Shown piece after piece: positions 38,583 to 64,000 of a DNA stretch of 64,000 nt (position 1 is its first letter; every line of letters begins with the position of its first letter). Under the pieces are notes generated by a model. That model did not search any database and was not told the origin of the DNA. It was given only the letters and a program-made list of their open reading frames with translations. Origin of the DNA: Isurus oxyrinchus (lineage: Eukaryota); assembly GCA_026770705.1 (NCBI GenBank), contig JANJGN010000011.1, positions 78,244,001-78,308,000 on the forward strand, written 5' to 3'. Both the position numbers and the translations under genes were made by a program.

Positions 38583-39029
38583 TGTGGTAAAAACAACCAC
38601 TCCGAATCTGTGTATTTTAAATAAGTAGTCTTTATTTCAAACATAAACTGGAGAGAGAGAACCTCAGCCTGCCAAGGAATCTCTCTCAATGACACAGGGC
38701 TGCAGCACATATTTATAGTTCTTATCTCCCTACTTTTCATTATAATGTTTCTCATTAAGTTCTTAACTAACCATACCATTCTTTCAGTAGATATTCCCAC
38801 TATCTCACCCCTCAGCCTTGTGTATGATCTTCAGTTCCCCTTTGCCTCCTTCTTCTGTATAACAATGAATCATCTGGTAATGCAAACTGTTAAGTCAGTA
38901 ATTACTACTACCATAGTCACTTTGGTCAAGTATCCCATCATGCTTAGAAAGAGCATTGGTCTATTCTAAAGCTATTAATGCATTTTTTCATATCAATTTT
39001 CATAAAATCATTTTGGTTATCCCACCTCA
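38583..39029 (-). mobile_element. Retrovirus-like 3' LTR (447 bp)
   Basis: The minus strand reads TGAGGT...ACCACA with imperfect inverted termini. It is preceded by PPT AAAAGGAGGGAC (39030-39041), with TATAAAT at about 38711-38717 and AATAAA at 38631-38636. Confidence 0.8.
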
Positions 39030-39229
39030 GTCCCTCCTTTTGGACCCTTGATCAGGCTTTACTTGGCCCAGGCAGGACATTTCCAAGATCTTCCAACCAC
39101 CAGTAGCTCTGGGGTGGGTTTCAGATCTTTTATCTTACTCTCCTCTTATAGCTTCACCAAAGTTCTAGTGACCGAGGCTAGGTCCGGAACCACCATCTCA
39201 TTAGATAGCAAAATCTTCATAAATGTTTC

Positions 39230-41000
39230 CAATCTTCCTATTCTCTGGGAGGGGAAATTTGGTTGTAGCGGATACCGAGATATATCCCTTATTAGCCAAC
39301 ATTACTGTCTGCACCACTTGAGATATCATCAGTCGCTGGTAAAAGCAAATACAGAGACTAACCCAATGGGATGGCAATGGACACAACAGCTGCTGCCATC
39401 CTCCTTACTTCCTACCAGTTATACTGCATTATTGCCATCTTGGCTCTATTATTGGCTGAGTCCTCCAAGCCTTTCCTAGCCTTTCCTGTCGCTAGATTCA
39501 CCTGCATCCTTCCCCTCATGATGGCTTTGTTCTATAACCCTCCTGGTAGTGGTTAGGGCCCTTTCCATTACTACTCAAGCCATTCGGCCTGGGGCGCTGT
39601 CAATATTTAATGTACCATTCCATCATGGACTGAATACATAATCAATAAGGGCCCCGCCCGCAAGATGAAAGTCCTCCACATGAAAAGAGTTGGTGATCTG
39701 TAAGCAGTAGGTATGGTTATTTTCACACTCCATATATGAATCTCGTCCTGTGTGTCAGAAAGCACACTGTCGGGAGGTTTGGACTGCCTTAAAGGCCCCT
39801 TCAAGAGGATTAACCGACACGACAATGGCAGAACTGTTACTAATGGATTCCAGGGTATTACAGGAGCACATGATGTAATGCTGAGATTCTGTACAACATT
39901 CTCGCATTGTCATCAAGCCCAGAACCAGATATCCCCAGGATCCTACCTGGTGCACCTAAGCACTTTTTTCCACTCCCAGGGATTCACATTTATTTCCCAT
40001 CCAGTATTTTCCATTAGTGTGTTCCTGCAATATATTCGTCAGAAATTTTATCGAATCCTCCACTCCCCCTGCTACAGGCCATGTAACAATTAATTCCTGT
40101 CATTCTCCCTGTAAATTGATAATGTCTAATTTCTTCAGAGCCTGATATATGCATTGAGGCACTGTGCCAAATCTTATGTCTGACCTAACATTATCTATCA
40201 GGTCCAGAGCCAACATGTCACATGCCCTCCTCTTAGACCGTGAATCCATTGCATTAATGTGGTCCGGGATAATAGTTTATCCTCTACTACACCTTCCCTC
40301 TGAACCTATATACTTGTAAGTGCATATTTAGTTCCCAGGCTGTGAATCACATTCCTCCTGCAGTCTCCTTGGCTACGCAGGATGCCTAACCATTTGTATC
40401 AGAGACTTGTAGTGAATTCAGGGCTGAAAATAGCACTGTAACTTCATTTCTCCCAATTGGTGGGCTCAGCATGGCCGCCACAATCAGCTAATAAGGTCAA
40501 GGTGAGATTGGTCAAATTGTCGGTCACGTCTAGGGTAACCATTGTAACATCATGTAATGTCACTTTGGGTCTCCCAATTCTAATTATCGCATCTGGGGGT
40601 GGTGACATGGTGGCTGGGCACTTCGTGGGTTTCTGATACCCGTAAGTTGACAAATTAAAGCATCTCATATTGCTACAACCAAATCAAATAACAGCATTTA
40701 TACATTTCTCTTGACAACATTGTCCCTCCAATCCTTGTTCCTAGACAAATGGGGCAGATTAGTCTATCCTGCCATAATGTTCACTCTTGTGTTGGACACC
40801 CTCAAGATGTCCCCACCAGTAGATGCTGAACATAGACACCAGAATTGCCCCATGCCTGAGCTAGTGATGTACATTCCCTTTATGTCCACATTTTCAACTT
40901 TGTCATTAGTGTAAAAGGTCGGGGCAATGTTACCTGAATCAGATTGTCCCGCTTTGATAATATAACCTGAATGATCTGATGATTAACGGCAGTGACTCTA
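39230..41000 (-). pseudogene. env: Env-like viral glycoprotein pseudogene
   Basis: Long near-continuous frames with few stops. They show Cys clusters, several N-x-S/T sequons (NLS, NLT, NLT, NSS, NHT, NGT), a basic site followed by RRNVIHSLGTKYAL, ECCTESQHYIMCSCNTL, a helical stretch, then hydrophobic AAAVVSIAIPLG. It lies between integrase and PPT/LTR. Confidence 0.72.
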
Positions 41001-41161
41001 TGAGAAATTCAAACACTCGGTTTTCTTATGCACCCTCGGCTCCCTCCTTTAGGCAGCTGCATGTATTGTCCTAGATGCAGACAAGTGGTTTTATTGATGT
41101 TCACAGTGGTCGCCTCCCATGCTGCTTTAATTGTTAAGTGGTTGACCACTGCTGCTTCTGT

Positions 41162-43904
41162 CCTTCGGACAGCCGTGTATTCACTATACCCCCTGACCTT
41201 CCCCTCTCTGACACTGAACGTTCAGTGCTTAGCAAAGGACTTACTTTCATACCCTTACACCCTCATCTCAATAAATTTTGGGCTCGACACGATGCTGAAC
41301 TCTTCACCCGCCATCTTCGTGTCCGTGCTTACTTCTTTGGCAGGAGTCCTCTCCCCGTTCAACGGATCCTTTTACCCATCTCCAATATTCTCCCTCCACC
41401 TGGACCCCTCCCTCTGGATTTTTACTTTCTCTTGATCTTTTCATTGAGAATTGTCGCCGCGACATTAGTCGTCCCAATTTCTCTGCTCCTCTCACCCATT
41501 CTAATCTGTCTCTTTCTGAACTTTCTGCACTCCGTTCTCTCAGGTCCAACCCTGACATTGTCATCAAACCCGCTGACAAGGGTCGTGCTGTTGTCTGGCG
41601 CAGTGACCTCTACATCGCGGAGGCTGAGCGTCAACTCGCAGACACTTCCTCCTACCTCTCCCTGGACCATGACCCCACCACTGAACATCAAGCCATTGTT
41701 TCCAGGACTGTCACTGACCTCATCTCCTCTGGGGATCTTCCTCCCACAGCTTCCAACCTGATAGTCGCCCAACCTCGGACGACCCGCTTCTACCTCCTAC
41801 CCAAAATCCACAAACAGAACTGTCCCGGTAGACCGATCGTGTCAGCTTGCTCCTGCCCACGGAACTTATTTCTCGTTATCTTGACTCCCTAACTCTCTCC
41901 CCTTGTCCAGTCCCTTCCCACCTACATCCGTGATTCCTCTGACACCTTACGTCACATCAACAATTTCCAGTTCCCTGGCTCAACTCTTCACTATGGACAT
42001 CCAATCCCTCTGCACCTCCATCCCCCACCAGGATGGTCTGAGGGCCCTTAGCTCCTTTCTCGAACAGAGGCCTGGACAATCACCATCCACCACTACTCTC
42101 CTCCGTCTGTCTGAACTTGTTCTCACACTGAACAATTTCTCCTTCAACTCCTCTCACTTCCTCCAAATAAAAGGTATGGCTATGGATATCCGCATAGGCC
42201 CCAGCTATGCCTGTCTCTTTAAGGGGTATGTGGAACATTCCTTGTTCCAATCCTACTCCGGACCCCTTCCACAACTCTTTCTTCAGTACATCGATGATTG
42301 CTTTGGTGCTGCTTCATGCTGTCGTCGGGACTTGGAAAAATTTATTAATTTTGCTTCCAATCTCCACCCCTCCATCATTTTCACATGGACCATTCTGACA
42401 CGTCCCTTCCCTTCCTTGACCTCTCTGTCTCAATCTCTGGTGATAGACTGTCCACCAATATCCATTACAAGCCTACTGACTCCCACAGCTACCTCGGCTA
42501 CAGCTCCTCACACCCCGCTTCCTGTAAGGACTCCATCCCATTCTCTCAGTTCCTTCGCCTCCGTCGCATCTGTTCTGATGATGCTACCTTCAAAAACAGT
42601 TCCTTTGACGTGTCCTCCTTCTTCCTTAACCGAGATTTTCCAACCACGGTCATTGACAGGGCCCTCAATCGTGTCCAACTCAGCTCCCGCGCATCCGCCC
42701 TCACGCCTCCTCCTCCCTCCCAGAAACATGATAGGGTCCCCCTTGTTCTCACTTATCACCCCACCAGCTTCCGCATTCAAAGGATCATCCTCCGCCATTT
42801 CCGCCAACTCCAGCATGATGCCACCACCAAACACATCTTCCCTTCACCACCACCCCCGTCGGCATTCCATAGGGATCGTTCCCTCCGGAACACCCTGGTC
42901 CACTCCTCCATCACCCCCTACTCTTCAATCCCCATCTATGGCACCTCCCGATGCCCACGCAAAAGATGTAACACCTGCCCCTTCACTTCCTCTCTCCTCA
43001 CCGTCCAAGGGCCCAAACTCTCCTTTCAAGTGAAGCAGCATTTCACTTGCATTTCCCCCAACTTAATCTACTGTATTCGTTGCTCCCAATGTGGTCTCCT
43101 CTACATTGGAGAGACCAGACGTAAACTGGGCGACCGCTTTGCAGAACACCTGCGGTCTGTCCGTCTGTCTGCAAGAATGACCCAAACCTGTCGCTTTCCA
43201 TTTTAACACTCCACCCTGCTCTCTTGCCCACACATCTGTCCTTGGCTTGCTGCATTGTTCCAGTGAAGCCCAACGCAAACTGGAGGAACAGCACCTCATC
43301 TTCCGACTAGGCACTTTACAACCTTCCAGACTGAATATTGAATTCAACAACTTTAGGTCTTGAACTCCCTCCTCCATCCCCACCCGCTTTCTGTTTCTTC
43401 CCCCTTCCTTTTGTTTTTTCCAATAATTTATATAGATTTTTCTTTTCCCACCTATTTCCATTATTTTTAAATCTATGTCTTTTATGCCGTGTTAGTCTTT
43501 CCACCCCACCCCCACTAGCACTGTACCTTGAGTGTCTTGCCATTCATTCTTAATTAGCACATTCGTTTTGATAATATCACCAACTTCAACACCTCTGTGT
43601 TCTTTTGTTCTTTTGTCTGTGCCATCTTTTAATTATCTGCTCCTATCACTGCTTGCTTGTCCCTACAACCACATCCCCCCTCCACTTCTCTCCCCCCACC
43701 CAACCCCCCCCACCCCCCACCCCCTACCTTATACCAGCTTATATTTCACCCCTCTCCTTGGATTCACCTAGTTCTGTTGAAGGGTGATGAGGACTCGAAA
43801 CATCAACTCTTTTCTTCTCCGCCGATGCTGCCAGACCTGCTGAGTTTTTCCAGGTAATTCTGTTTTCTTTTTGGATTTCCAGCATCCGCAGTTTTTTGTT
43901 ATTA
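41162..43904 (+). mobile_element. Penelope-like retroelement (Neptune-like), 5'-truncated, RT plus GIY-YIG endonuclease plus pseudo-LTR; frameshifted
   Basis: IKPADKG, FYLLPKIHK, TMDIQSL, YIDD, LPFLDL, linker CPRKRCNTC and NLIYCIRCSQCGLLYIGET...RFAEH. TCTGT is repeated at 41157-41161 and 43905-43909. Confidence 0.95.
43770..43808 (+). ncRNA. Penelope minimal hammerhead ribozyme, CUGUUGA core variant
   Basis: AGTT-CTGTTGA-AGGGTGATGAGGACTC-GAAA-CATC-AACT, with stem I AGTT/AACT. Confidence 0.65.
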
Positions 43905-44565
43905 TCTGTTTAAGGTCCTTGCCATTGTGGGTCAAATCCTGGTTGCCCCAGTGCCCCCTTAACCATTATCTTATCCTTTACATCTGGCATGTCCTAGGAG
44001 AACTGCTCCCCCTCTCTTCTGTCCCAGTCCACTACTTTCTGATGCTGTCTCACCTCAGACCTCAATTACATAAGCTGTCTACACAACTCCACAATGCACC
44101 TGCTTCTCCGATCTTTCAATGGCCCAATATCTTCACTTCCAGTGGCGGTGCCCTTTGGGAGCACCCAACTCTGCCTTTCATCATGGTGTTAATCCTGTGG
44201 TCCTACTTGGTGTAGCTCACAGGTGCATTAATATGGTCAGTAGTACATCCACACGTCCTTTTTCCAGCTCTCCTTTTACTTATATCCATCTTGTGGATTA
44301 TTTCTCCTTACCCTTCAATTGTCTCAACCAAAGAGTTCTTGTATTTTTACTTTATTTTTTTTAACTCCCTCTGACCATGATCATCTTAAGATTCTCTTAA
44401 AGTCAATTTCCCTATGCTTTGATCGTTTAAAAATGTGTTCTTACTCTTTAGGCCATATTAACCATTTCATGTAGAAAGGGGTCTCCTATGTCTCTGGTGT
44501 TGGCCAGGTTATCAAATTTAGTTCTCTTAAAAATTTTGTACATTTTGTCCCTTTTCCCTAACATT

Positions 44566-47013
44566 GGGTGGAATTGTCTCAGGTTTGCATTAAGTGCAGT
44601 AGCAGGCGGAAAAAAAACTTTTTACCCAGCAGCTGCAATGGCAGCTTCTCACACTGTACCATCGCAATCACACCACTTCCAGCCCATGACTCTGCTGCAT
44701 GAAAGGCATGGCCCGGGAAGGCAAAAACACTGCAGCCCCCAGGTTCAATGATGCGTCCCCTGAGTGCCCTTTGGAGGCGGGGAGGCTCACCATGATGTCC
44801 TCTACGCCTGCTTTTGCTGCAGGATGGGCAGCAACCTCACTAATCTGGCTTGGGAGGCGGTGGCAGTGGTGGTCAGCATCAATGCTCTGCAAAAGTGGAC
44901 AGTCACTCAGTGCCACTTGATGATGATCTCCTCCGTTCCACTAGGGTAAGTCACTCTTCTCATCACTCTCAATTCACAGACTCACGAGCCCATCACACAT
45001 CCACAGGGATCTCACACTTCAAGACCACTAACTCACACACACAATCACATCTCCATCAGGTTCATATTCTCTGGAGCTCGCATCCTGATCCCGTCCATGG
45101 CTTCGCTCACCATACAAATATTCCATGCAGTGCCATCTGTTTCCATGCAGGAGAAGCCTGCTCACATCAGCAGGGAGAGGTCCCAGGCCAGGGGTAAGAC
45201 GGCCCATATTAGGTCCCTCACTCATTCTGAGGAGCCATGCCAAAGTCATCAGAGGCAACAGGACCAACTATTGCACAGGCTGTCTCTACCCCTGCTGCAG
45301 ATGTTGGGGCAGCAACTAGAAATCTAAGGCATTCAAAAGTTAAGAAATTCTGATCATAGTTGGTTGCATGGGTGAACACATTTTGTCACTTTACAATCTA
45401 GATATATATTCACCTTCACAGCATAATGTGTAATGGGTGTCTTTCAGCTTCATTGACAGACTTCGCGAGTCCTCCCACTGCATGCCCCACCACTAGCAGT
45501 CAGCAGCATGCAGCCAGTCCGGAAGTGATTCTGGAGGGAGAAGTGTGGACAGGGCCTTTCAGAGCCTCGTGTAAGCACTTTCCCACACATCTTTCACCTA
45601 CCACACTCATCTCAATGTCCTGAGAATTTTCAATGCCGCCAGCTGGGGTTTGCTTTCAGTTGTCCATCTGAGCTGACCTGCATCTCTGCCCACCCAATGA
45701 TCACACTCCCATGCAGCACCTGATCTCACCCAGCACAATTCTCATTTCACTTTTGATTTAACCAGCATGGTGTTAATACGAGGTTTTGTTTCACTCCCCT
45801 GTTCTTTCCCCTCCCCCAGTCACCCATTTAATTTCCGCATCACTGTTGACCACCCCCCCCGGCATCACCTTCTACCTCTCCTCCGTGACCTACCAGCCAC
45901 AATCCTTTTCTTTTTGGGAATATCCAGGTGAACATGCAGGTTCCCAAAAATTCCATCCCCATTGACAGTAACCTCCCTGACATCCTCCTTCCCACCCCCA
46001 GGGTCCATGTCTGCTCCCGAGTCCCCACCAACCACCTTATTGTCCCTTCTACCGAAACCGTTGAACCCTCACCCTCCCACCCTACCACCTCACTCTGCCC
46101 TCGGTCATTCTCACCATTCCCTCCTAACACGCTCGCCCTCAGTTTGCTCCCCAGGGGGCAGTCATGGACTCATCAGAGCCCTCCCTTGCACGTTCACCTG
46201 GACTTCCTCCCTCCGGATTCCTTCCCCGCTTTAAACTCCTTCCTCCCTGGAACTCCTCCCCCTCATCCCCGGACTCCCCCCTCAGTCCTTCTCCCTTCCT
46301 AACTCCTTCAGACACTCTTACTTCTTCCTCCACCCTTACTCCCTCCTCTCTCCACACTTCTTCCTTTCCCCCAGACTCCTTTCTCCCACCGGACTCCCTA
46401 CCCTCTCCACGCTCCTTCCCCGCCTCCCCCCCCAAACTCCTTCCCTTACACCTTCCACCCCCCCTTACACCTACTTTCCCAGCTGCCATCTTCTCCCCCG
46501 TTACCTCCTCCTCCCCCTGCAGTCTCTCCCACTCCCAACCTCCCTGACACCTTCATTCCCCCCCTCCCAACCTCATCCGCCCAACACCTTCATTCCTCCC
46601 CTCTCAACCTCACCCCCCTGATAGCTTCATTCCCGCCCTCTCAACCTCACCCGACCCTGACACCTCTTCCTTTCCAACTCGACCCTGGGCCTTCCTCCCC
46701 CACCCTCCTGGTACATCTTTCTCTCCCAAACACAGCTGGATCTTCACCCCCTCGACCATCATCCATTATGAGCAGACCCTCAACGTTGACTTTCCACCTT
46801 CCATGGGGTGATCCAGTTGAGGGGGGGGTGTATAATTCTGGCAGGCTCATCTTATAATGATATGTTGATGTATTACGGCCTGCCATCGACAGCTAAGCGG
46901 TCAATTGCAAACTGGTTTCATGACATCGTGAAGCCAATTTTTGGCCTTCTCGCCATATTTCCACTCACGCTGTCAAACACACCCGAAGCCAGTGGGCACG
47001 GAAAATTCAGCCC
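44566..47013 (+). mobile_element. Non-autonomous Harbinger with Myb/SANT exons, both TIRs present
   Basis: TIRs GGGTGGAATTGTC and GAAAATTCAGCCC with flanks ATT/TTT. MAREGKNTAAPRFNDASPECPLEA...AWEAVAVVVSINALQK, donor GGTAAG at about 44945, acceptor GCAG|GAGAAG at about 45150. Confidence 0.85.
46140..46720. repeat. Pyrimidine-rich low-complexity tract with about three tandem 36-38-bp units
   Basis: C/T-rich, with CTTCATTCC..CCCTC(T/C)CAACCTCA repeated at about 46535-46665. Confidence 0.75.
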
Positions 47014-48426
47014 TTTATCTCCTACCTTTAATCATTTCCTCACACTGTCTTACACATGCAATACTTACTGTCTTATCTCGTTCCGTTTGTCTAGAGAGAC
47101 TTTACAGTCCAATAAAATACTCTCATAATATCTTTAAAGCAGAAATCAAACACTTCTATTTAATTCCAGGCAATAACATGTTTTACTTCTTCACCATCTT
47201 TCCCTTCGACAACATTTTCTTTTCTCAAAAGTAACCATTACATTGGGCCTGACTCTTTTCATTTTAAAAGTATCCCAAATTCAGGTAGCAGTATTGTTGA
47301 GCCGACAGGTTTTGTTATTCCTCAATTTATTTCTCCCATAAACAAAAGTCTTCCTGTGACTCTGCCACAAATTGGATTTCTGCCAAACTCCTTCAAGACT
47401 TCAGGCTTATCTTTATATTTTGCAAACAGATTTACAAGTGCATATTAAACTCCTTTTTTTCAACACAGAAGCTTGCAGCATTTTGAATTGGAGTCAATTG
47501 CTGTCAAACCTTTGAAAATAAAAATTCCCTTTCCTCTTTGAGAACCTTATCAGGAGCCAAGCATCAAATCTTTAAACTTTGTAACAATTGCAATTTACAC
47601 TATCAAAATTAAAATTACCCCTTTCTCATGTGTGCGAATTTGTATCCAGGTTAAATGTCCCGCATGTTTGTCAACACATATTCTTTGTCTTAGATGATAT
47701 CATAGTTTTTCCAAAAGTAACTGGTTAAAAACCTGATGCTCATTGGTAACAATTGGCCTAAATAGGATAAGTCTTTTTTTTTAAAAAAGGTGGAGTAGAG
47801 CCTCAAATAAATTCTCGGATTCCTAAAGTTGCTAGAAATCTTGTTATATTTGCGGTTATCTCAAAATAAAAGAACAAGGGTCCATTCTGCTTCAGGCAGA
47901 ATGGATTAATTTAGCAGTCTAAAAGCTCAAGCTGCAATCAGAAAGAGTTAACTCCCTACTAGACTGCAGGAGTACATTTGAATTGTGATCTTTGGCCAGA
48001 AACCTCAACTTGAACTTCATAATTTAAAACATCGGTTTGAATTGTTTAATTATACTTTCCTTTAATTCAACTCATAATCCTTATTGTAAGGCTTTTAATT
48101 CAAAGTGCTGAAACTCCACACACAAATGACAATTTAGGGAAGAAAACACATTCAGCTCCCACACAAATTTGTCGTTGCATGCAAATACACACACATATAT
48201 AAAGATATGTATATTTCCATTTTTTGACATTTATCTTAACAGTTTAAAACTTTCATACTCTAAATGAAACTTCAAGTGGCGATGGGATGGAAAGGGATCT
48301 TCGAGACTCCACCTACAGGGACAGTCCAAACAACCAAAACGTAGGCTTCCTTTGTTCCTGAGTGTCACTGTCCACTAACCATCCTCACCCACCCCCCATC
48401 TCCCCTTACAAATAGCCTTTTCTCTC

Positions 48427-50517
48427 ACAGAATCACAGAATTACACAGCGCAGTAGAGGCCCTTCGGCCCATCGAGTCTGCAGTGACACGTGAGAAACAC
48501 CTGACCTACCTACCTAATCCCATTTACCAGCACTTGGGCCATAGCCTTTAAAGTTATGACATGCCAAGTGCTCATCCAGGTACTTTTTAAAGGATGTGAG
48601 GCAACCCGCCTCCACCAGCCTCCCAGGCAGCGCATTCCAGACCGTCACCACCCTCTGGGTAAAAAAGTATTTCCTCACATCCCCCATAAACCTCCTGCCC
48701 CTCATATGAATTTGTGTCCCCTCGTGACTGACCCTTCAACTAAGGGGAACAGCTGCTCCCTATCCACCCTGTCCATGCCCCTCATAATCTTGTATACCTC
48801 AATCAGGTCGCCCCTCAGTCTTCTCTGCTCCAACGAAAACAACCCAAGTCTTTCCAACCTCTCTTTATAACTTAAATTTTTCATCCCAGGCAACATCCTG
48901 GTGAATCTCCTCTGCACCCCCTCCAGTGTAACACGTCCTTCCTATAATGTGGCGACCAGAACTGAACACAGCTGTTGGCCTCACCAAGGTTCTATGCAAC
49001 TCCAACATGACCTCCCTACTTTTGTAATCTATGCCTCGATTGATAAAGGCAAGTGTCCCAAATGCCTTTTCCACCACCCCACTAGCATGCCCCTCTGCTT
49101 TCAGAGATCTATGGACACACACACACCAAAGTCCCTTTGTTCCTCAGAATTTACCAGTGTCATGCCGTTTATTAAATACTTCCTTGTTAAGTTACTCCTT
49201 CCTTTATCACCTCACACTTTTCAGGGTTAAATTCCATCTGCCACTTACCAGCCCATTTTACCATCCCGTCTATATCTTCCTGTAGCTCAAGACACTCAAC
49301 CTCACTGTTAGCCACCCAGCCAATCTTTGTGTCATCCGCAAACTTACTAATCCTACCCCCCACATAATTATTTATGTTGTTTATATAAATGATGAATAAA
49401 AGGGGACCCAGCAGAGATTCCTGTACTATGCCACTGGACACGGGCTTCCAGTCACTAAAGCAGCCTTCTGTCATCACCCTCTGTCTCCTACAACTAAGCC
49501 AATTTTGAATCCACCTTATCAAATTACCCTGCATCCCATGTGCATTTGCCTTCTTTATAAGTCTCTCATGTGGGACCTTGTCAAAGGCTTTGCTGAAATT
49601 CATATAAACTACATCAACTGCACTACCCTCATCTACACACCTGGTCACTTCCTCAAAAAATTCAATCAAATTTCTTAGGCATGACCTCCCTGACAAAGCC
49701 ATGCTGACTATCCCTGATCAAACCTTGTCTCTCCAAGTGGAGATAGATTCTCTCCGCTTCAGAATTTTCTCCAATAGTTTCCCTACCACTGACGTGAGAC
49801 TCTTTGGCCTGTAGTTCCCTGGCTTATCTCTACAACCCTTCTTAAATAGAGAAACCACATTAGCTGTTCTCCAGTCCTCTGGCACCTCCCCCGTGGCCAG
49901 AGAGGAATTAAAAATTTGTGTCAGAGCCCCTGCAATCTCCTCCCTTGCCTCCCTCAGCAGTCTGGGACACAAATCATCTGGACCTGGAGATTTGTCTGCT
50001 TTTGAGCCTGCCAGCACCTCCAATACCTTGTCACTCCCTATATCAATTTGTTCAAGAACCTTGCAGTCTCTCTCCCCGAGTTCCATACCTTCATCCTCAA
50101 TCTCTTGGGTGAAGACAGATGTGAAGTATTCGTTCAACACACTACCAATGTTCCCTGGCTCCACCTATAGATTGCCCCCTTGGTCCCTAATGGGCGCTAC
50201 TCTTTCCCTGGTTATCCTCTTCCCATTGATATACTTATAGAATATCTTGGGATTTTCCCTACTTTTACCAGCCAGAGCTTTCTCATATCCCCTCTCTGCT
50301 CTCTGAATTGCTTTCTTAAGCTCCACCCTGTACTTTCTGTATGCCACTAATGTCTCCATTGATTTGCTCCCCTTGTACCTGCTAAAAGCCTCTCTTTTCC
50401 TTCTCATCATATCCTGAATATCTCTGGTGTTCCATGGTTCTCTGGGCTTGTTACTCCTTCCTATCACCCTAGAGGGAACATGTTGAGCCTGTACCCTCCT
50501 CATTTCCATTCTGAACG
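48427..50517 (-). mobile_element. CR1 LINE, 5'-truncated ORF2
   Basis: KSPGPDDLCPRLLRE, VDVVYMNFSKAFDKVPH, SKFADDTKIG and QRRLRGDLIEVYKIM, with an ACAGAATCACAGAAT tail. Confidence 0.96.
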
Positions 50518-51574
50518 CCGCCGCTGACCAATCAGATTGGCTGGCAGCTCTCTAAGGCGGGACTTCCTACCAAGTGAAGCGTGAAATGGCTGCGCAGCAT
50601 TTGGATTTGACAGGGATGTGTTCCCTGCCAACTCTTCGGATGGTGGGGAGCAAGACCCCGCCATCCAAAAAATTCAGGCCATTGTCTTTGTTTGCTGGTC
50701 AGTAAGCTCAAAATCCCCATAGTGTAACTGGTGCATTGCTCATATTTGCATTCTCAGTTTCATGATTTCATTTTTAATATGCAAAGATATAGATCACAAA
50801 GAAAACATTGGGTGGGATTGCCCCCTCCTGCCATGAGCAGGATTCATGGGGGGGGGGCGGCGTGGTGGTGGTGCGGGGGCAGGGACGGAAAATAAGGCAA
50901 GGAGCAAAAATATCGGTGTCCTGACTTCAAGAAACCAGATCGGGATCATCCCCTCCCGATATTCATGGCGGACTGACGGTGGGTCTGGCCTCCTGCTGAA
51001 GCTTGGCAGGAACCCATTTTGCATCTCATGCATGCTCATTAAAATCCCAACAGACCAGGATCGTGCACCCCTGCCAGCAGGAACGTATGCGAGCTTTTTG
51101 ATTTGCAAATCCTCACTGTCTGTTGATGACCACACGGCAGCAGACGTGGCCCAGAGGATTCTCACAATGAGATCCCAGCAAGGTATAGAGTTGCCATTCA
51201 CTCTGAGCCATTCGCCATTCACTCAAGACAGAGTTAGGGAAGAAGTGGGGAATGGAGGAAGGGGGAGTCTATAAAGGGCATCATGCAGGTGAATGGCAGT
51301 CAAGTCTCAATTGCAAACCTCCATTTTCTAGGGAGAATGACAAGGGCCCATGCGGTTAGTCTTTCCATTCTGCCAAGGTCTATCCATAGAAGGCAGTGCA
51401 GGCAAACTGAGTAGTGTGAGTGGGAGGCTTTCCTCTCCCATTTTCTCTCTCTCCCTCCTGTTGTGGGCCACCTTCTCCTGCATAAAGACATACAGGTGAT
51501 CATGAGTACATATAATGAAAGAGCAGGTCACAGGCTGCTAATTCCATGGCTGCTAACTGACCTCATGACTTTTC

Positions 51575-52058
51575 AAAAACCAACCACCATATGCTTGGCA
51601 TAAGTGAGGAGTGAGACGGAATAGTCTCCAGTTGCCTGAACGAATGCAGCTCTGAGAACACTCAGGCAGCTGAACAATATTGAAGATAAAGCAGCCTGCT
51701 TAACTGACACCCTATCCAGAATCCTCAACATCCACCAAAGTAGAGTGACAGCAGTGTGTACCATGTACAAGATGCACTGCAAAAGTCACCAAGGCTCCTG
51801 GAGCAGCAACCTCCAACCCTGTGAGCTCTACCAGCTAGAAGGACAAGAGCAGCCGATGCATGGGAGCAGCAGCACCTGCACTTTGCCCTGCACTCCACCC
51901 TTCAGTGTGGCTAGGCGCAAACCCTACAGTTGCCTCGCTAATAGCACAGCACATGGACTGCAGGGGTTCAATAAGGCAGCATCCCACCACCTTGTCAAGG
52001 CCATTTCGGGATAGGCAAGAGAAATGCTGGCCTTGCCTGTGAAGCCCCGGTCCCATGA
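51575..52058 (+). mobile_element. Old CR1-group LINE 3' fragment
   Basis: Homologous to 33345-33865 (GCAGTGTGTACCAT.TACAAGATGCACTGC...AAATGCTGGCCTTGCC). Confidence 0.85.
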
Positions 52059-52378
52059 GACAAATACAAATGAGTAGTGAGGTGGGTTGGAAGGGTAGAA
52101 GGTTCACTTACCCTAGCGGCGTGAATAGATCGTTGACCCTTTTCCCAACCTGCAGGGCGATCCTCCTCTGCAACCCATGGGTGCTGACTGCCCTGACTAC
52201 CTCTTCCCAGGCCGCAGTGATCAGTTGGGATGGCCTCTTACAGCCATCCATGGGGAAGAAGACATCCCATCTTTCTTGAACTGCATCCAGGAAATGCACC
52301 AGGCATGCATCACTGCTGCCTTTGCCTACTCATCATTCTTCCTGCTAGTGAAGGCCTGTCCGACTGCCTTCTAAACAT

Positions 52379-54264
52379 TAAGACAAAAGCAAAAAACTGT
52401 GGATGCTGGAAATCCAAAGCAAAAACTAAAATACCTGGAAAAACTGAGCGGGTCTGACAGCATCTGCAGAGTGGAACACAGTTAACGTTTCAAGTCCGAA
52501 TGACCCTTCAACAGAACTAAGTAAAAGTAGAAGAGAGGTGAAACATAAGCTGGTTTAAGGGGGGTGGGGGGGGGGACAAGTAGAGCTGGATAGAGGGTCA
52601 GTGATGGGTGGAGATAACCAAAATATGTCATAGACAAAAGGACAAAGAGGTGTTGAAGGTGGTGATATTATCTAAGGAATGTGCTAATTAAGGGTAGAAA
52701 GCAGGACAAGCAAGGTACAGATAGCCCTAGTGTGGGTGGGGTGGGGTGAAGGAATCGAAAAAGGCTAAAAGGTAGAGATAAAACAATGGATGGAAATACA
52801 TTTAAAAATAATGGAAATAGGTGGGAAAAGAAAAATCTATATAAACTATTGGAAAAAAAAGGGGGGGGGTCAGAAAGGGGGTGGGGATGGAGGAGAGAGT
52901 TCATGATCTAAAATTGTTGAATTCAATATTCAGTCCGGAAGGCTGTAAGGTGCCTAGTCGGAGGATGAGGTAATGTTCCTCCAGTTTGCATTGAGCTTCA
53001 CTGGAACATTGCAGCAAGCCAAGGACAGACATGAGAGCATGAGAGCAGGGTGGAGTGTTGAAATAGCCAGCAACAGGAAGATCTGGGTAATGCCTGCGGA
53101 CAGACCAAAGGTGTTCTGCAAAGCGGTCACCCAGAATGCGTTTGGTCTCTCCAATCTAGAGGAAACCGCATTGGGAGCAACGAATGCAGTAGACTAAATT
53201 GAGGAAAGTGCAAGTGAAATGCTGCTTCACTTGAAAGGAGTGTTTGGGCCCTTGGACGGTGAGGAGAGGGGAAGTAAAGGGGCAGGTGTTGCATGGGAAG
53301 GTGCCGTGGGAGGGGGTTGAGGTGTAGGGGGTGATGGAGGAGTTGACCAGGGTGTCCCGGAGGGAACAATCCCTGCAGAATGCCGCTGGGTGGGTGAATG
53401 GAAGATGTGTTTAGTGGTGGCATCATGCTGGAGTTGGGGAAATGGCGGAGGATGATCCTTTGAATGCGGAGGCTGGTGGGGTGATAAGTGAGGGCAAGGG
53501 GGACCCTTTCATGAAACCAATGCATTTCCTCTACATTGGAAAGACAAAACGCAGTCTAGGTGACTGCTTTGCAGAACACCTGCAGTCTGACCACAAGCAT
53601 TACCCAGACCTCCCTGTTGCTGGCCATTTCAACACTCCACCCTGCTCTCATGCCCACATGTCTGTCCTTGGCCTGCTGCATTCTTCCAGTGAAGCTCAAT
53701 GCAAACTGGAGGAACAGCACCTCATCTTCCGACTAGGCACTTTACAGCCTTCCAGACTGAATACTGAGTTCAACAATTTTAGATCATGAACTCTCTCCTC
53801 CATCCCCACCCACTTTCCAACCCCCCCGTTTTTCCAATAATTATTATAGATTTTTCTTTTCCCACCTATTTCCATTATTTTTAAATGTATTTCCATCTAT
53901 TGTTTTATCTCTACTTTTTAGCCTTTTTCGATTCCTTCACCCCATCTCACCCCCATTAGGGCTATCTGTACATTGCTCGTCCTGCTTTCTACCCTTAATT
54001 AGCACATTCCTTAGATAATATCACCACCTTCAACACCTCTTTGTCCTTTTGTCTGTGACATTTTTTGGTTATCTCCACCTATCACTGGTCCTCTATCCAG
54101 CTCTACCCGTCCCACCCCGCTCCCCGCCCCCCTTATATTTCACCTCTCTTCTATTTTTACTTAGTCCTGTTGAAGGGTCATTCGGACTCGAAGCGTTAAC
54201 TGTGTTCCTCTCCGCAGATGCTGTCAGACCTGCTGAGTTTTTCCAGGTATTTTTGTTTTTGTTT
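52379..54264. mobile_element. Penelope insertion with inverted structure (tail-out arms of about 750 bp)
   Basis: 52379-53510 is a minus copy and 53511-54264 a plus copy of the GIY-YIG C-terminus plus pseudo-LTR. A 14-bp TSD TGCCTT(C/T)TAAA(C/T)AT lies at 52365-52378 and 54265-54278. Confidence 0.92.
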
Positions 54265-55002
54265 TGCCTTTTAAATATGGTGCCCAGACATGCACCCCAC
54301 TTCCTGTCCGTGCTGCCGTGAGGCTTGGTGTGGAACGCGCATGTGCATAACTAATGAGATGGGGAGCGGTTGGTTGCGTTTAAAAGCCCACCCGTTCCGG
54401 GAATCTCTTCGACTTTCTCATTTCACCATGGAACTTATGGCAGGACGCGAAGATTCTACGCATTATATTTGAAAATCAAATCTTTTGGGGAAATATTTTT
54501 GATAATTATTTAACTTTGCCCTGAATTATACTTTCACTGGGCTGCTAGACAATTCCACAGGAACTAGGCTACCATATCAACGGTCCTTACGGAGAAAGCA
54601 ACATATTCTCACAAACCCACTGAAGTCTTAGAGACTCCTACATCTCCATCCCAAACTGCCAGACAAGAGCCGATGCCAATTATTGCTATTGCTTCCCCTT
54701 CTTTGGCTTTTAAATGTCATAAGTTGACAGGCCTTCCAGCTTGGCAATATGTGCTATCTTCTTCTGTAGGAGGAATGCATAAATTTAATTGGATACTGTA
54801 ATCTCCAGATCCAACAATTATAATCTATCAGGATACTTGGAGTGGTTGGTACTAAGGGTAGGTGTAAAGTAGCAATGACCTAGAAAGGGAAACCACAGTG
54901 TGCTAGTGGCTATCACAGGATAGGAGACAATCGATAAATTCTATCATATGGTTTTGTTTCTGAAGCAGGAAACAGGGTGTCATGTGAAACCCAAAAGACA
55001 TT

Positions 55003-55715
55003 CATAGAATCTTGCAAAATCTTAGAGCACAGAAGGCACATTTGGCCAGTTGTATGTACACCAACTCTTTGAAAGATTATTCAATTAGTTTCATCACCCT
55101 GCTCTTTTCCCAGCGTCCAGCAATTTACTCCCCTTCAAGTACTTATCCAATTTCCTTTTGAAAGTTATTATTGAATCTGATTCTGCCACACTTTCAGCAG
55201 TGCACTCCAAATCATAACAATGCATTGCATTAAAAAATTGTCATCACATTTCTAGCTCTTTAAGCTAATTACTTTATAACTATGTTCTCTGGTTACTGAT
55301 CCTTCAATCACTGGAAACAGTTTCTTCTTATTCACTGTATCAAAATCCTTCATGATTTTGAACATCTCTGTTAGGCCTCCCCTTTACCTTAACAAAAACA
55401 AAAACAGAATTACCTTTACCTTCTCTGCTTTCAAGAGAACAATCCCAGCTTCTCTAATCTCTCCACGAAACTTAAGTCCCTTATCCGCAAATCCCCCCCA
55501 TGTATCCCCTCCAAGGCCTTGGTATCCTTTCTAAAGTGTGGTGTCCAGAATTGGATATAATATTCGATTTGAGGCCTAATCAGTAGTTTATAAAGATTTA
55601 GTATAACGTCCTTGCTTCAATACACCTTACCTCTATTTGCAAAGGCCAAGATACTGTACGCTCTTTCTTAACAACCTTATCAAATTGTCCTGCTACCTTC
55701 AAAGATTTGTGTATT
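55003..55715 (-). mobile_element. Old CR1 LINE 3' fragment
   Basis: CATAGAATC tail. The reverse complement encodes LIRPQIEYYIQFWTPHFRKD. Confidence 0.85.
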
Positions 55716-55821
55716 AAATATGTAATCCACATATTAGATTTTTCAGACCTTTACTTGAATCTTTTTTTTCTCCAATTTTCTTCCTGCTATTTACCTTCTC
55801 CCAAGCTGATGACTGATGATG

Positions 55822-56250
55822 GCCGTTGTTTTCCTTGGAGCAGAGAAGGCTGAGGGGGGACTTGATTGAGGTGTACAAATTATGAGGGACATAGATAGAG
55901 TTAGATAGGAATAAACTTTTCCTCTTAGTAGAGGGTCAATGACCAGAGGGCATAGATTTAAGGTAAGGGCAGAAGGTTTAGAGGGGATTTGAGGAAAAAC
56001 ATTTTCATCCAGATGTGGGGGGGGGGGGGGGGGGGGTCAGTATCTGGAACTCACTGCCAGAAAGGGTGGTAGAGGTGGGAACCCTCACAACATTTAAGAA
56101 GTATTTAGGTGAACATTTTAAATGCCATCGCATACAAGGCTACGGGAGAAGTGCTGGAAAATGGGATTAGAGTAGATATGGGCTTGATGACCAGCACAGA
56201 CACGATGGGCCAAATGGCCTCTTTCTGTGCTATAAACTCTATGACACTAT
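55822..56250 (+). mobile_element. CR1 LINE 3' fragment with an internal G20 run
   Basis: FSLEQRRLRGDLIEVYK and TRGHRFKV, with tail GGGCCAAATGGCCTCTTTCTGTGCTATAAACTCTATGAC. Confidence 0.92.
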
Positions 56251-57074
56251 GACTGTCATTGGGCCTCCTCTGCAACCTCAGTTCCATTTTAAATAAACAT
56301 TGACCATTAGGAAGTTCTGTTGAATTATCCCAAGAAAGTCAATCTAATGGTAGGTGTAAATTTCTAAAAGAAAACAATGATAAAGTTTGCGCAATTTGTC
56401 CTGGTAACTGAAACAATGCCACACCGAACCTTTTCTGCCTTTTCCTCTTCTGTTACTCACTGATATGAAAAAACATGCTGCCTTGCTACGAACAATGCCT
56501 GCAGCTAAACACAAATGTTGTTACTATAATTTTATTTAATAAATAATTTATTTCAGTGGGAGTAAGAAAAGAATCCACATAAAGCTAAAGCCTGTCCATA
56601 GACTACCAATGCCATCTGCTGGAAAGGTAAAACACATGGATGATATAAACTCATGGGATTGGTTTCATTTGAACAACCTCAATCTCATTGCTATGTGAAC
56701 ATTGTATCATTGCTATGTCTAGCCCAAGGTAGATTGCTAGGTTCTCTTATTAAATTATTTAACTAGTAGGAATTAAATACAGCGTAGCAGACATGGCTGA
56801 CATTATTCTGGTCAGATTACTGCTGATTAAATATGCAGCACCATGGTTTCTGCGGTATCCCATACCAATGTGGCTTTCGTCCACTGCCAATAAATCTCAG
56901 TCTAAGTGCCCTGACCTGAAGTTCCAGTGTCTGAGATACTGTTCTTCAGGTGATATGTCAAACTGAGGTGCTGTCTGCATTTAGGGTGCATATTACTGAA
57001 GGAAAACAGAGCTCTTTTCTGTGAACACTCCACTCTCAAAACAATACAATCAAAAAAAAAAAATTCACTGGCCA

Positions 57075-58860
57075 CACTTGAACATTGCTGCCACAGAAAG
57101 GCATTTGGCTGCCAAGCAACATCGCTCAATTGTCTCCTTTAGATGATATGTGTATTGTGTACTGACCCAAATAGCATGCATGATACTACATTTATCTGAA
57201 TGAGATGCCATTTGCCAATGTGTAACCCATTTTCCTAGTGCATCCAAACTTGTGCCCAACCCAAACAAGCGTAAGATGATGCGCAATGACATCAGGCAAG
57301 CATCCTGATGTCATCGTGCACTCGCACGATATATCGGTTGGCAGGCATGCGCAGGAGTCGCAGTGCGCCCACCAACAATTAACAGGCCTATTAATGCCAT
57401 TAAAGTACTATTTGAATTGAATTTTTCATTGTCTATCCAACCTTATGGTAGGAGGGCATACGAAAAGGCCAAGCCGCCTTTCGACTTTTTGCAAAACCTC
57501 ATCCACGGGCACAATAAGTTTTTGTTCAGTTGTTAAAAAAACTAAAGTTTTTCAACTAATTTCTAACATGTCCCTGCTCATGTGACAGAATCATATTTTT
57601 AAATTCTTTATTTTTATTGTTCAAAATCTTCATCTCCCCGAGGTGGCTCTGTGCCTCAGGGAGCTTTTCTTGCACGCATGTGTGAACTTGCACGCTCGCC
57701 CTTCTCGCCCCCCCATTTTCCTAGTCATCCAAACTTGTGCATTTGATTGCACTCTTATACTGCCTTAACCCTTGCACAGATTTTGGTGTCTTCTGTGAAC
57801 TTGCTTACCATACTCCCAATACTGTTATCCAGGTCATTGATAACAGCAATGGGCCTAGGACCAATACCATAGTCGACAACACTAGTAACATGTCTCCAAA
57901 CTGAACTACATCTACTAACTCCAACTTTTGGAGCCAATTCCTAATCTAGCATTTCAAATTTCTATTGATAACACAATATTTCATCTTATGAAGTAACATC
58001 AAATCAAATACCGTATTAAAAATTTTCTGAAAGTCTAGATAAACAATGTTGACTGGATTTCCTTCATCTATTACCCTATCTCTATCAAAATTGTGAGACA
58101 TTGCCTATTCTTCCAGTTGCCATTTTGTGGATTTTCCACTTCCCTTCCCTCTACCAGTGATCATAAAGGGCATCTCATAGGATCCCTTCAAACATCCTCT
58201 CAGTAATGGATGTCAGACTGATAGATGTTCCATAGGTCTGATTTGTACCCGTTTTTGAAAACAGGAATTTTATGAACTAGCTTCCAGTCCTGATTCTGGT
58301 GAACTATTAAGTAAATGGACAAGGGGCTCACTGAGACCTCATCCATTTCTTATATATTATCCAGATCTCGAGCCCTATGAATTTTGGGCTTTCCTAATCT
58401 ATCCAAAATTACATTTCTATCTATTTTAATATGAATGATGCTCCACAATATGAAGCATCTTTCATTTGAAGCATAAACAACATCTACAGGCATATGGGCC
58501 AATGTGAAATAGTCATTCAGCATCTCTGAGAATCAGTTTGAATCTGGCCTGCATTATTCTTCAGTGGTCCTAAAAGATTCTTTGTGGCCTTTTGACTTTT
58601 GATATAGGTTAAAAAAAAAGCTTTTGCTAGCAGTAACACAATTACACTCCAACTTCTTTTCCAAAGATCTCTTGGCTAATCTTAATCTTTTTGTCTTCTT
58701 TAATTACATGCAGTGCTTTTCCCTGTTCTCTTGTGAGTTAAATACTCTATGTATTTAACTATATAGGGTTAAATACCTATATTTAAGGTATTTAGAGTGT
58801 GTCGAGTGCCTCATATTCATCTCTACATTCCTTGTCAGCCATAATGATGTTGTTTTACCA
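57075..58860 (-). mobile_element. Ancient CR1-type LINE RT fragment
   Basis: INDLDNSIGSMVSKFTEDTKIC, YLDFQKIF, and KWVTHWQMASHSDKCSIMH. Confidence 0.8.
57256..57711. mobile_element. TIR-less Harbinger-MITE fragment flanked by a 29-30-bp direct repeat
   Basis: Homologous to 5285-5520 and, inverted, to about 8540-8670. The flanking duplication lies at 57226-57255 and 57712-57740. Confidence 0.8.
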
Positions 58861-59009
58861 TATGAAATTATAAGGAAAAGGTATGATGGGGCAAATTACT
58901 ATTTGTATAAATGCTACTTCAGTGTTAACGTCAGTGCCAACTAGAGAGAACCAGCTTTGCTTGCAACAGAGGCACAATAATAACAGTAGCAGGCAGTTGG
59001 TGACTGAAG

Positions 59010-59340
59010 CATACTATTTACTATGTGACAGTGGCTATTCACCTCATCAAAGATCAACTGCCTTCTGGTGTTAGCATTAAATATCACCTCGATGGAAAGC
59101 TCTTTAACCTTAGTCATCTCCATGCCAAAACTAAACTGACCACCATAGACATACATGATCTACTGTTTGCCAATGACTACAGTGTTCTTGCCCACTCCAC
59201 ACCAGATTTGCAATCACTCCTGATCTCTTCAATTTTGCTTATAAGAAACTCAGCCTGTCCTTGAATGTTACCAAAACAAAACTCATATATCAACTCACAC
59301 CTGGTCAGCCAAATATCCCACCTCCCATATATGTTCTCCT
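59010..59340 (+). mobile_element. RTE-clade LINE RT fragment
   Basis: GVSIKYHLDGKLFNLSHLHAKTK...DLLFANDYSVLAHSTPDLQSLL matches the RTE pattern DGxLFNLxRLxAKTK...LLFADD. Confidence 0.85.
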
Positions 59341-59784
59341 ACTCTTTCCATGCTTCTATGTGCAAGGGTGACCAGGGTGACCTCTTCCAAGTGAGTCAAG
59401 GGCTTAGGATTTTTGAACTTTCCTCCATGTTTGTCTTTTCTTTTGTATTTTATGACACCTTGGCAAACAAACAGAGAAATATACATGCTTAATTGTAAAT
59501 TGAATAAGCACATGCAGAACAGCAGATTTGCAGCACATTTTGGGTGTCAGTAAGTGGTCAAGTATCAAGCAATTAGGTTGTGTGACAATGACTTGATAAT
59601 GTGAAACCCTTGGCAGATGTTGATGTGACAAGGTTTTCAGTTGCAGCTTGAATATGTGCCCCTGCTGAATATATGAGATGTAATGAAGCAAATATAGACA
59701 ATAAACATGGAGCAAGCAACCCTTTGGAGGGATATAATCTTGGACCACTTACTTGACACATGGTACAGCTTGCTGAGCTAGTCT

Positions 59785-60000
59785 TACCTTGTACAGATTT
59801 CTTAGTGTGCTGTCTTCTCCCACATCAGTATTGAGCCTGGCTACCACTTCCTGCCATGTCAGATTCATTGCTGTACTCTGGGAAAGGTGTCCTGAGTGTC
59901 AAGCAGGACGACCTTCCTAGTGCTCACCTCATACAGCAGCACATCAATTTTCTTAGTGATAAACCAGAGTCGAATATAAGGCTGCTTCTCCACTTGCTCA
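59785..60000 (-). pseudogene. Old Myb/SANT-like (Harbinger accessory gene) exon remnant
   Basis: FITKKIDVLLYEVSTRKVVLL...TWQEVVARLN, ending at AAG|GTAAGA. Confidence 0.6.
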
Positions 60001-60042
60001 CAGGCTCAGTTTCATTCCTGAATATTGAGTTTGTTTTTCCTT

Positions 60043-60167
60043 GGCCAGGATTTTACGCCCCTCCCACCCGGTGGGATATTACAGTCCGGCCGAACTGAAT
60101 GGACATTTAAACGGCTCGGTGCATTGCTGGGGGTGACACATGGCGGTGGGGCCATAAAATCCTGTCC
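60043..60167. mobile_element. 125-bp Harbinger/Tourist-like MITE
   Basis: TIRs GGCCAGGATTTTACGCCC and GGGCCATAAAATCCTGTCC, with a 3-bp CTT on both flanks. Confidence 0.8.
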
Positions 60168-62681: not shown

Positions 62682-64000
62682 GGGCGGAATTATCTGCTCC
62701 TGTCAGCAACGGAAATTGTGATGGGCATGGGCACTTAATTTGAGGGGCAAAAAATTCTGTTTCCCAACAGCGGGATAAACTGTTAAAATTTTGTTCTCCT
62801 GACTTTCAAGGCTTGTCAAACTTCCCGACAAACAATATCGGGAACACTGTTTTCATGCATTAGAATCTCATACATGCTCATTAAAAGGCCACCTCGCCAG
62901 AATTAGGCTCCCATTCCAAGTTCATTTCCCCACCATCGAGAATTTAGAATGTTTAGTTTTACGGCTGGATGTAAGTGGCATTCACCTGGCAAGCTATATC
63001 TTTTTCACAACTTTGAGGTCTGTAGATGTTGCATTCTCCTTCTTCAAGACCTTGCATAACTTCACTCATATTGAGTGCTGTTAGCACGCACTGCACCAAG
63101 GCTGGACAAGGGAGGCAGGCAAAGGCTGGAAGGGGGTGGTAGGGTGGAAGGGTGGACTGAAGGCTGGACAGGGGAGGCATGCCTACGGAGAAGTTTGGGT
63201 GAGAATGTCTGGGTAAGGTGGGAGCGGGCGCAAGTGTCTTAGAGGGCAGGATCAGCGGTGTTGACAGTGGGATCCTGGGGGGGAAGCTCAGGGTACTGGT
63301 GATAGGAGGGAATTGTCAGAGTCAGTGGTAGGAGTGGGATGTGGTAGGCTGGCAGGTCCAGGGTGAGAGTCTGGTAAGTGAAGGTCTCATCGGGTGGGTC
63401 ATGGAGAGGGACAAGACAGGTGGCTCGGATAACAGGATAGGGCCAGGTCAGGGTGAGCATGGAGACGGTGACAGGTGTCAGTTCTGAGGGGAGGAAAGGC
63501 ATTTGGAGGTGTATTGTTATAGGGTGCAGGGTAATGGGGGAAGGTTCAAGGGTGACAGAAAGGAGAGGAATGATGATATTGGATGGTTCTATGGTGATGG
63601 GGGGAAGTTGGTGGGTGATAAGGGGAGGAAATAAGGTGATGGAGAAAGTTTGAAAGGTGACACACACCATTTTTCCAAACTAACCTTGACCACCCAGTTA
63701 GTCAGTCAGTAAAATCCCTCGAGGTGGGAGGAGGGTCTTTTCAGGTGGGTGGAGTTCAAGATCAGCACATGTGGCTGACTAAAGGGTCGTTCTAATAATT
63801 ATGTGGCAACTGGATGTCAACCATTCTCAGTTGTATCTCCTCTCTATGGTGAAGCCCACATTGCAGCAGGTTCGTGACTCATGGGTCTCATAACATCAGT
63901 ATCCCAGTAAGGTGTGGAGCTGCCATACATTCAGTGCCATTTGGCATCGGCTGCAGTCAGAGACAGGGGTGGAGGGAGGGAGGAAGGGATGGAGGCGGAT
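62682..64000. mobile_element. Harbinger-type element running off the window end
   Basis: Starts GGGCGGAATTATC and shares the subterminal motif CATGCTCATTAAAA with about 51030. The interior is purine-rich. Confidence 0.55.

Follow-up and report, generated by a model that had tools for sequence, protein, structure and literature searches.

In a 2024 structure paper (PMC11468914), the envelope glycoproteins (Env) of orthoretroviruses are placed in class Ia, and foamy virus Env is grouped with the fusion (F) proteins of paramyxoviruses and pneumoviruses in a second class, Ib. Lokiretroviruses combine a dual RNase H with an Env that carries an R-x-K-R site, a fusion peptide, a coiled coil and a transmembrane segment (TM) and resembles the F proteins of Mononegavirales; their RNase H is of group I and groups with that of foamy viruses, their integrase is close to CGIN1, and some of them have an smc gene (PMC7947760). 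They are the only vertebrate carriers of an F-like Env named in PMC13524379, which defers vertebrate endogenous retroviruses (ERVs). Epsilonretroviral Env is left outside the Env classes of bioRxiv 2021.11.05.467493, and a survey of anamniote Env took in gamma- and beta-type proteins only (bioRxiv 2021.11.23.469661). A further group, the clade of ERVs related to snakehead retrovirus (SnRV; clade Huo), is known from aquatic hosts (PMC6001957, PMC4977317, PMC12193657), including a cartilaginous fish, the elephant shark (CmiERV lineage I; PMC4422223). The subject of the present analysis is the remnant of an ERV on the minus strand of a 64,000-nucleotide stretch (the window) of the genome of the shark Isurus oxyrinchus (assembly GCA_026770705.1, contig JANJGN010000011.1, positions 78,244,001 to 78,308,000 of the forward strand).

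With a probability of roughly three in four, this remnant is a dead copy, truncated at its 5' end, that belongs to a pol-deleted, non-autonomous family of a likely SnRV-like ERV with a predicted F-type (class Ib) Env. No reverse transcriptase (RT) or RNase H of the provirus was found within the window, so its lineage was read from pol-bearing relatives elsewhere in the genome. Such relatives (L100, L104, L141/142 and L144) possess long terminal repeats (LTRs), a primer-binding site, genes in the order gag-pro-pol-env and a polypurine tract (PPT). One of them, L141/142, shares 70-77% DNA identity with the family of the window copy (family A) in the leader and 69-75% in env. The pol of L104 matches RT_RNaseH_2 (E 4e-13) and RNase_H (E 1e-17), that is, a tether and a second RNase H, as well as the integrase domain rve (E 1e-11), and the lineage is therefore retroviral.

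The RT of these relatives carries the signature blocks of SnRV. Counted by hand, the first half of the L100 RT is identical to SnRV at 44 of 95 positions (~46%) and to the lokiretrovirus Loki-Pma at 34 of 95. The QYTWT..PQ.FH.SP.IFH block ahead of the active site, also counted by hand, agrees with SnRV at 16 of 19 positions, with walleye dermal sarcoma virus (WDSV) at 11 and with Loki-Pma at 9. The reference alignments for both counts are those of the PMC7947760 supplement. A motif scan of loci L111 to L146 found the SnRV-type block in seven loci and the loki-type and epsilon-type blocks in none; the SnRV-type block is also visible in L141 (family A) and L144. Like that of SnRV and its clade, the RNase H is of group III, the type of murine leukemia virus (MLV): against the Protein Data Bank (PDB) it reached 68-94 bits with chains of MLV and the xenotropic MLV-related virus (XMRV), and no foamy chain occurred among 17 matches at E<=0.001. 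Gag shows a weak zf-CCHC match (E 0.003). Membership in Spumaretrovirinae was ruled out by the MLV-type RNase H, the weak Gag CCHC match and the short signal peptide of Env. No relative of the RT stretch was found in IMG/VR. A first look for SnRV-type RT gave 3373 candidates, and the same block occurs in other RT families (L121, L127, L128, L130, L136 and L139).

The Env family to which the remnant belongs is best seen outside the window. With 150 candidates scored, a protein search of the genome returned at least 151 matches, some of them in younger sister families of ~45-50% identity. Their Env begins with a signal peptide, followed by ~325-330 residues up to an R-x-K/R-R site and by a fusion peptide of the form S[IF]LGD[IV]GGLFGSANS. 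An extended helical region comes next, then a beta region whose cysteines are conserved, a long membrane-proximal helix, the TM and a tail of ~55 residues. Among named sequences, the closest Env fragments belong to Carcharodon (74%, covering a third of the query) and Scyliorhinus, in keeping with the cartilaginous-fish lineage proposed in a preliminary description of the locus. A search of 1.84 billion representatives gave 15 matches and a profile search 91, and intact, unannotated homologues occur in many teleosts and one turtle. The teleost proteins (the P0005 cluster and P0046-P0077; 600-780 aa) come from cyprinids, loaches, eels, clupeiforms, mormyrids and smelt, with 444 members in one 90% cluster. 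More distant homologues are P0010 (Caretta caretta) and P0032 (Carassius, a second goldfish lineage). In pairwise comparison with teleost P0018, the window Env stretch shows 27% identity over 222 aa (E 1e-16) and the Env of sister copy L080 28% over 482 aa (E 1e-65). A teleost integrase fused to an Env homologue shares 48% identity with the shark integrase over 113 aa, and P0082 suggests that the fish and turtle env loci belong to proviruses whose RT is of the same type. In the Env tree, from which teleost rows P0047 and P0059 are left out as the cut motif was not found in them, four family-A rows group at 99/99 and ten teleost rows at 100/100; the tree has no outgroup, and its deep order is unresolved.

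Sequence searches with this Env return few familiar names. The gamma-type motifs LQNRxxLD (ISD) and CX6CC, which the preliminary description likewise did not see, are present in none of 26 long homologues, and in 25 shark loci there is no ISD and only seven CX6CC strings, six on the opposite strand and one across a stop. A gamma-type Env was ruled out on the missing ISD and CX6CC. Pfam gave no Env family match in 12 window or family stretches, 9 sister open reading frames (ORFs) and 8 database homologues. Among 2686 candidate proteins of 546-2000 aa compared with the window Env stretch, none gave a match. The available texts of PMC12583693, PMC11521997 and bioRxiv 2024.03.17.585361 do not describe the shark Env family.

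Three comparisons with different inputs point to the F type. In a language-model feature comparison (Atlas), teleost P0005 reached 0.93 to clusters of Gypsy env, Fusion_gly F0 and Baculo_F, with 197-204 shared features. Foldseek searches of the PDB with a model of teleost P0018 returned F proteins of respiratory syncytial virus (RSV) or paramyxoviruses, or foamy Env, in all 45 rows listed (best E 3e-5), including those of RSV, Newcastle disease virus (NDV), human parainfluenza virus 3 and Nipah virus. In BFVD, the same model gave 18 matches at E<=0.001, led by the Env of walleye epidermal hyperplasia virus 1 (WEHV-1; 2e-8), followed by a fish virus glycoprotein, by WDSV Env in third place (4e-7) and by baculovirus F and many F-type or related glycoproteins. 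The best viral structure match is thus an epsilonretroviral Env, one of the outcomes that the preliminary description had set against its own reading, and the list otherwise consists almost entirely of F-type or related class I fusogens. In the VIA search among 48,161 chains, NDV F ranked first (Z 7.5, rmsd 21.6, 278 residues aligned) and the prefusion foamy Env 8rm0 second (Z 6.5, rmsd 3.4, 117 aligned). The secondary elements of the models also follow the order found in F: strand, helix, cleavage, long helix, beta region with cysteines, long helix and TM. Because three individually weak methods agree and the order of elements matches, the Env of the P0018/P0005 family is likely, on these models, to have the F-type (class Ib) fold, in line with the possibly F-protein-like Env of the preliminary description. 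A fish glycoprotein labelled as filoviral (A0A2P1GML9) and the walleye epsilonretrovirus Envs outrank F proteins in BFVD, which hints that they are F-type as well.

Several results weigh against this picture. On the fold, the mean pLDDT is poor (41 for the shark-copy model, 45.5 for teleost P0018), the Foldseek TM-scores lie at 0.1-0.27, and VIA Z values below 8 fall in a range that possibly means a common arrangement. It is the teleost homologue that supplies this evidence, not the shark copy, whose model gave coiled-coil matches only in VIA and whose ORF gave bacterial peptidases under 0.9 only in Atlas, with no lead. No Env scanned matched PF00523 or PF12259 (for PF00523, nothing at E<=10 in 8 homologues), and Env profiles A1 and A5 found no PDB sequence below E 0.02. 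On the lineage, the placement was made by motifs, by positions counted by hand and through PDB scores, not by a tree with named references. The PDB scores are split: the N-terminal half of RT reaches 68 bits with foamy virus and 57 with MLV, the C-terminal half plus tether 125 with MLV and 54 with foamy virus, as is to be expected when no member of the lineage has a solved structure. The motif scan is biased against loki matches, since the loci were found with the lineage's own RT. The primer of the family is tRNA-Ser, that of SnRV being tRNA-Arg. SnRV Env was not named in the database searches or among the 50 BFVD matches listed (3-4 of them unnamed), and the Env tail of ~55 aa differs from the 136 aa of SnRV (PMC12193657). 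Most shark copies are, unlike SnRV, pol-less, and no accessory ORFs were noticed in the shark family, in which no search was aimed at them.

Other placements of the lineage must be weighed against the SnRV-like one. The preliminary description had leaned towards lokiretroviruses, and a first lokiretrovirus of a cartilaginous fish, with a Mononegavirales-F-like Env, would account for the dual RNase H of the pol-bearing relatives, for an Env with signal peptide, R-x-K-R, fusion peptide, coiled coil, TM and predicted F likeness, and for the WPV.K....RLTIDY block common to both RTs. However, the lokiretroviral signatures of RT (RCPFGY.NSP, with no match here, and IYVDD) and of RNase H are lacking, and an RNase H that scores best with MLV/XMRV (94 bits) and reaches no foamy chain contrasts with one that groups with foamy viruses. 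Loki-Str has a surface subunit (SU) of ~95 aa after the signal and another fusion peptide, whereas the shark family has ~325 aa before cleavage, an SU three times longer, and no PF00523 match. In PMC7947760, no lokiretrovirus was found in three chondrichthyan genomes. We therefore consider this origin very improbable, while the wording offered beside it, an otherwise divergent env-bearing lineage, fits. Nor is it likely that the shark ERV is epsilon-like (clade Mu), with an Env simply of the walleye-virus type. In favor of that reading are the first and third BFVD ranks of WEHV-1 and WDSV Env, which also stand outside the gamma and beta Env classes, an RNase H and tether that resemble both MLV and WDSV, weak Gag_p30 and MLVIN_C matches, and the epsilon-like nature of two of the three elephant-shark ERV lineages (PMC4422223). 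Yet the RT has LTIDY and NGFWSI as in SnRV and not the MIHDLR and NAFFSV of WDSV, the conserved RT block is closer to SnRV than to WDSV, epsilon-type motifs had no match, and the Env of 700-750 aa is much shorter than the walleye Envs (1159-1317 aa), to which it is 12-13% identical.

A separate, unnamed retrovirus lineage of fish, sharks and turtles, near but outside the SnRV clade and with its own Env family, is quite unlikely. The identity of only ~46% in the counted half of RT, the different primer tRNA and Env tail, and the lack of a named viral member among 91 + 15 + 2 Env matches would suit it, but such identity together with the signature blocks is compatible with a broad SnRV-like clade that takes in zebrafish, reptiles and the elephant shark. 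It is likewise doubtful, to much the same degree, that the Env is not F-like and that the structure matches reflect long helices in a poor model. The low pLDDT, TM and Z values and the absence of Pfam or PDB sequence matches speak for this. On the other hand, three methods with different inputs chose the same family from large libraries, the foamy match takes in the strand-helix core at rmsd 3.4, and the element order is that of F. The predicted core shared with foamy Env is not accompanied by foamy virus organization: the shark-family Env has a short cleavable signal peptide in place of the long leader peptide with a second TM, the RNase H that goes with it is orthoretrovirus-like, and the accompanying Gag has a weak CCHC knuckle.

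Returning to the SnRV-like reading, the window copy itself comprises the following parts, interruptions and boundary.

38583..39029, minus strand: 3' LTR of 447 bp with a TG start, TATAAA at ~38717 and AATAAA at ~38636
39030..39043, minus strand: PPT, kept ahead of the 3' LTR in family copies
39150..41164, minus strand: broken env with many stops and frameshifts
40420..40450 (approximate), minus strand: place in env at which 84 nt and 26 nt have been deleted, from a DNA alignment with four sister copies
41165..43899, plus strand: nested Penelope-like retroelement (RT and GIY-YIG) between integrase tail and env
43900..44562, minus strand: what is left of the integrase (end of the core and C-terminal tail, 43913-44246), with non-coding DNA on its upstream side
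44563..47013, no strand assigned: second nested repeat, unrelated to the provirus, not at the corresponding place in sister copies, with matches in 9 of 172 loci
47014..48385, minus strand: AT-rich non-coding family segment (31-35% GC) in the place of gag-pol, from comparison of family loci
48386..49800, minus strand: LINE, which we take from its motifs to be CR1-like, forming the 5' boundary of the provirus

The provirus remnant runs from 48385 to 38583 and is larger than the 38583..44560 first reported: the 3' end given there holds, and the upstream limit moves because a comparison of a larger stretch with family copies matches at 47014-48385, beyond the second nested repeat. The minus-strand parts named in the preliminary description are in place, namely the end of the integrase core (ATPSRTTGLTP at 44216-44184), the GPY-type tail (43948-43913), the PPT and the LTR with its TATAAA and AATAAA. 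In tblastn, the integrase remnant aligns at 40-66% with the integrase of a pol-bearing relative, and tblastx also matches pol-bearing family copies. Neither a primer site nor a gag start of this copy was found, and no 5' LTR is present in 44001-64000 or in the next 30 kb (50 kb upstream).

The env remnant retains, in order, an SU remnant, an F2-like strand and helix, a heptad region, a cysteine-rich beta region, a membrane-proximal helix, the TM (~39399-39330) and a short tail; its first codons were lost at the Penelope insertion. What had been described as one glycoprotein frame of ~1.8 kb is indeed an env remnant, although one of ~2.0 kb that occupies three frames (26, 41 and 45 stops), none of them open for more than 100 codons. 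The three Env peptides quoted there lie at 40353-40318, 40225-40148 and 39901-39851, and the hydrophobic TM stretch near 39399-39361. The proposed cleavage site, an early basic site followed by NVIHSLGTKYAL, has to be given up: the peptide sits in the first heptad region, past a frameshift, and the supposed site is a frameshift junction, since 84 nt and 26 nt are absent relative to four sister copies. The missing nucleotides, which those copies keep, had coded for the larger part of the furin site and for the beginning of the fusion peptide. The window copy is thus dead, having lost its cleavage site, fusion-peptide start and reading frames and taken two insertions.

The Penelope-like insert (GIY-YIG E 9e-5) is ~90% identical to other copies, has matches in 53 of 172 loci and is younger than the provirus. 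The second nested repeat may hold the start of a Harbinger-like Myb ORF; it gave no fitting Pfam match. Two more Penelope-like pieces lie at 52381-54304 of the window in inverted orientation, 83-95% like the insert.

Genome searches with env and LTR returned at least 90 and at least 48 matches, respectively (40 scored candidates each), the long env matches at 68-79% DNA identity. Judged by sequence, the window copy belongs to an old family of dozens of copies. The LTR recurs elsewhere together with env and internal sequence, as the preliminary description expected, and this recurrence and the conserved PPT show that the provirus is not a chance assembly. Fuller copies consist of LTR, primer site, gag start, AT-rich segment, integrase tail, env, PPT and LTR, with ~5 kb of internal sequence. 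Among 28 family-A env loci fetched, 17 have the AT-rich segment, three a pol core (L141/142, L146 and L150) and eight neither within the fetched stretch; a few relatives that share leader and env also possess gag-pro-pol, including the tether and RNase H. Mismatches between subfamilies show no 3-base periodicity in the AT-rich segment (lag-3 ratio 0.985; shuffles 1.00 +/- 0.02), as against 1.24 in env. A captured gene was rejected as its source, given the lack of codon periodicity and of any tblastn match to gag or pol.

At 11 distinct element loci there is a primer site whose sequence pairs with the 3' end of tRNA-Ser. A 20-mer complementary to this site has 82 exact genome matches, and the four checked were three tRNA-Ser and one tRNA-Phe. 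LTR pairs diverge by 14-26% in five family-A loci and by 4-9% in four younger sister-family loci, two pairs with alignments of ~50 nt being left out. The two rates in PMC4422223 differ tenfold and give ~35-75 or 350-750 million years, for which reason no date is claimed for the family. Five near-identical copies (L068 and L070-L073, contig C88) lie within 0.7 Mb, probably through segmental duplication. At L052 and L152, family LTR pairs 8.5 kb and 1.5 kb apart enclose no match to the window internal sequence and represent other internal families or deletions. The two-LTR copy L097 has a 5-bp target-site duplication at its flanks, which is unclear in the other copies looked at.

The non-coding module is not confined to one env subfamily. 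Seven of 10 sister-family (B/C) loci fetched are chimeric (L091, L093, L096, L097, L101/102, L106 and L108), with a B-type gag start, the AT-rich segment and integrase tail of the window family, a second, B-type integrase fragment and a B-type env. The same module beside a sister env, together with two integrase fragments, indicates recombination between co-packaged genomes, and the module has moved between two helper lineages. It may be a cis-acting packaging or export element. Non-autonomous ERVs of the VL30 type keep LTRs, primer site, PPT and leader, carry non-coding DNA in place of pol and need a helper. Unlike these, the shark family kept env and joins the same non-coding module to two different env subfamilies. 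Inside one sister provirus (L102:3-2258 and 2497-3600) there is a young Penelope-like element with a 752-codon open frame and an adjoining inverted partial copy. A few kb upstream of another (L107:5707-9435), a 1243-codon open frame rich in Thr, Glu and Ser is probably a host exon.

Under the SnRV-like reading, pol-bearing helpers would have supplied in trans the proteins that packaged pol-less RNA, copied it from a tRNA-Ser primer and integrated the product, and pol-less copies would have kept env. The ancestral Env would start with a signal peptide and a ~250-residue extension, likely receptor-binding, followed by an F2-like strand and helix. Furin would cleave it at R-x-K/R-R, next to a fusion peptide of the form S/D-[IFL]-L-x-x-I-x-G-L-F-G-S-x-N-S. 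Refolding would proceed as in F, with the first heptad and the long membrane-proximal helix forming a six-helix bundle, and the protein would end in a TM and a ~55-residue tail. The window copy is inert and incapable of any of these steps.

SnRV-like ERVs of sharks were already known; no report of an F-type Env in SnRV-like ERVs was found in the literature searched, which left out most subscription papers and bioRxiv supplements. The locus itself is an ordinary dead repeat, and its value lies in giving entry to an Env family that no Pfam entry matched and that is common in fish genomes, often with intact members. If the predicted fold is true, a lineage with an SnRV-like RT and an MLV-type RNase H, and probably the epsilonretroviruses too, carry an F-type fusogen. 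A broader picture, offered tentatively and with a little less than even confidence, is that F-type Envs are not confined to foamy viruses and lokiretroviruses but are shared by the Env family of SnRV-like ERVs from sharks, many teleosts and a turtle and by the walleye Envs; that the F fold is the ancestral retroviral Env and the gamma/beta hairpin Env a later replacement within orthoretroviruses; and that in this shark a pol-less, parasitic module was swapped between two env subfamilies. Should the fold hold, the family would bear on which envelope the first retroviruses had, and this could be tested with natural, intact fish proteins.

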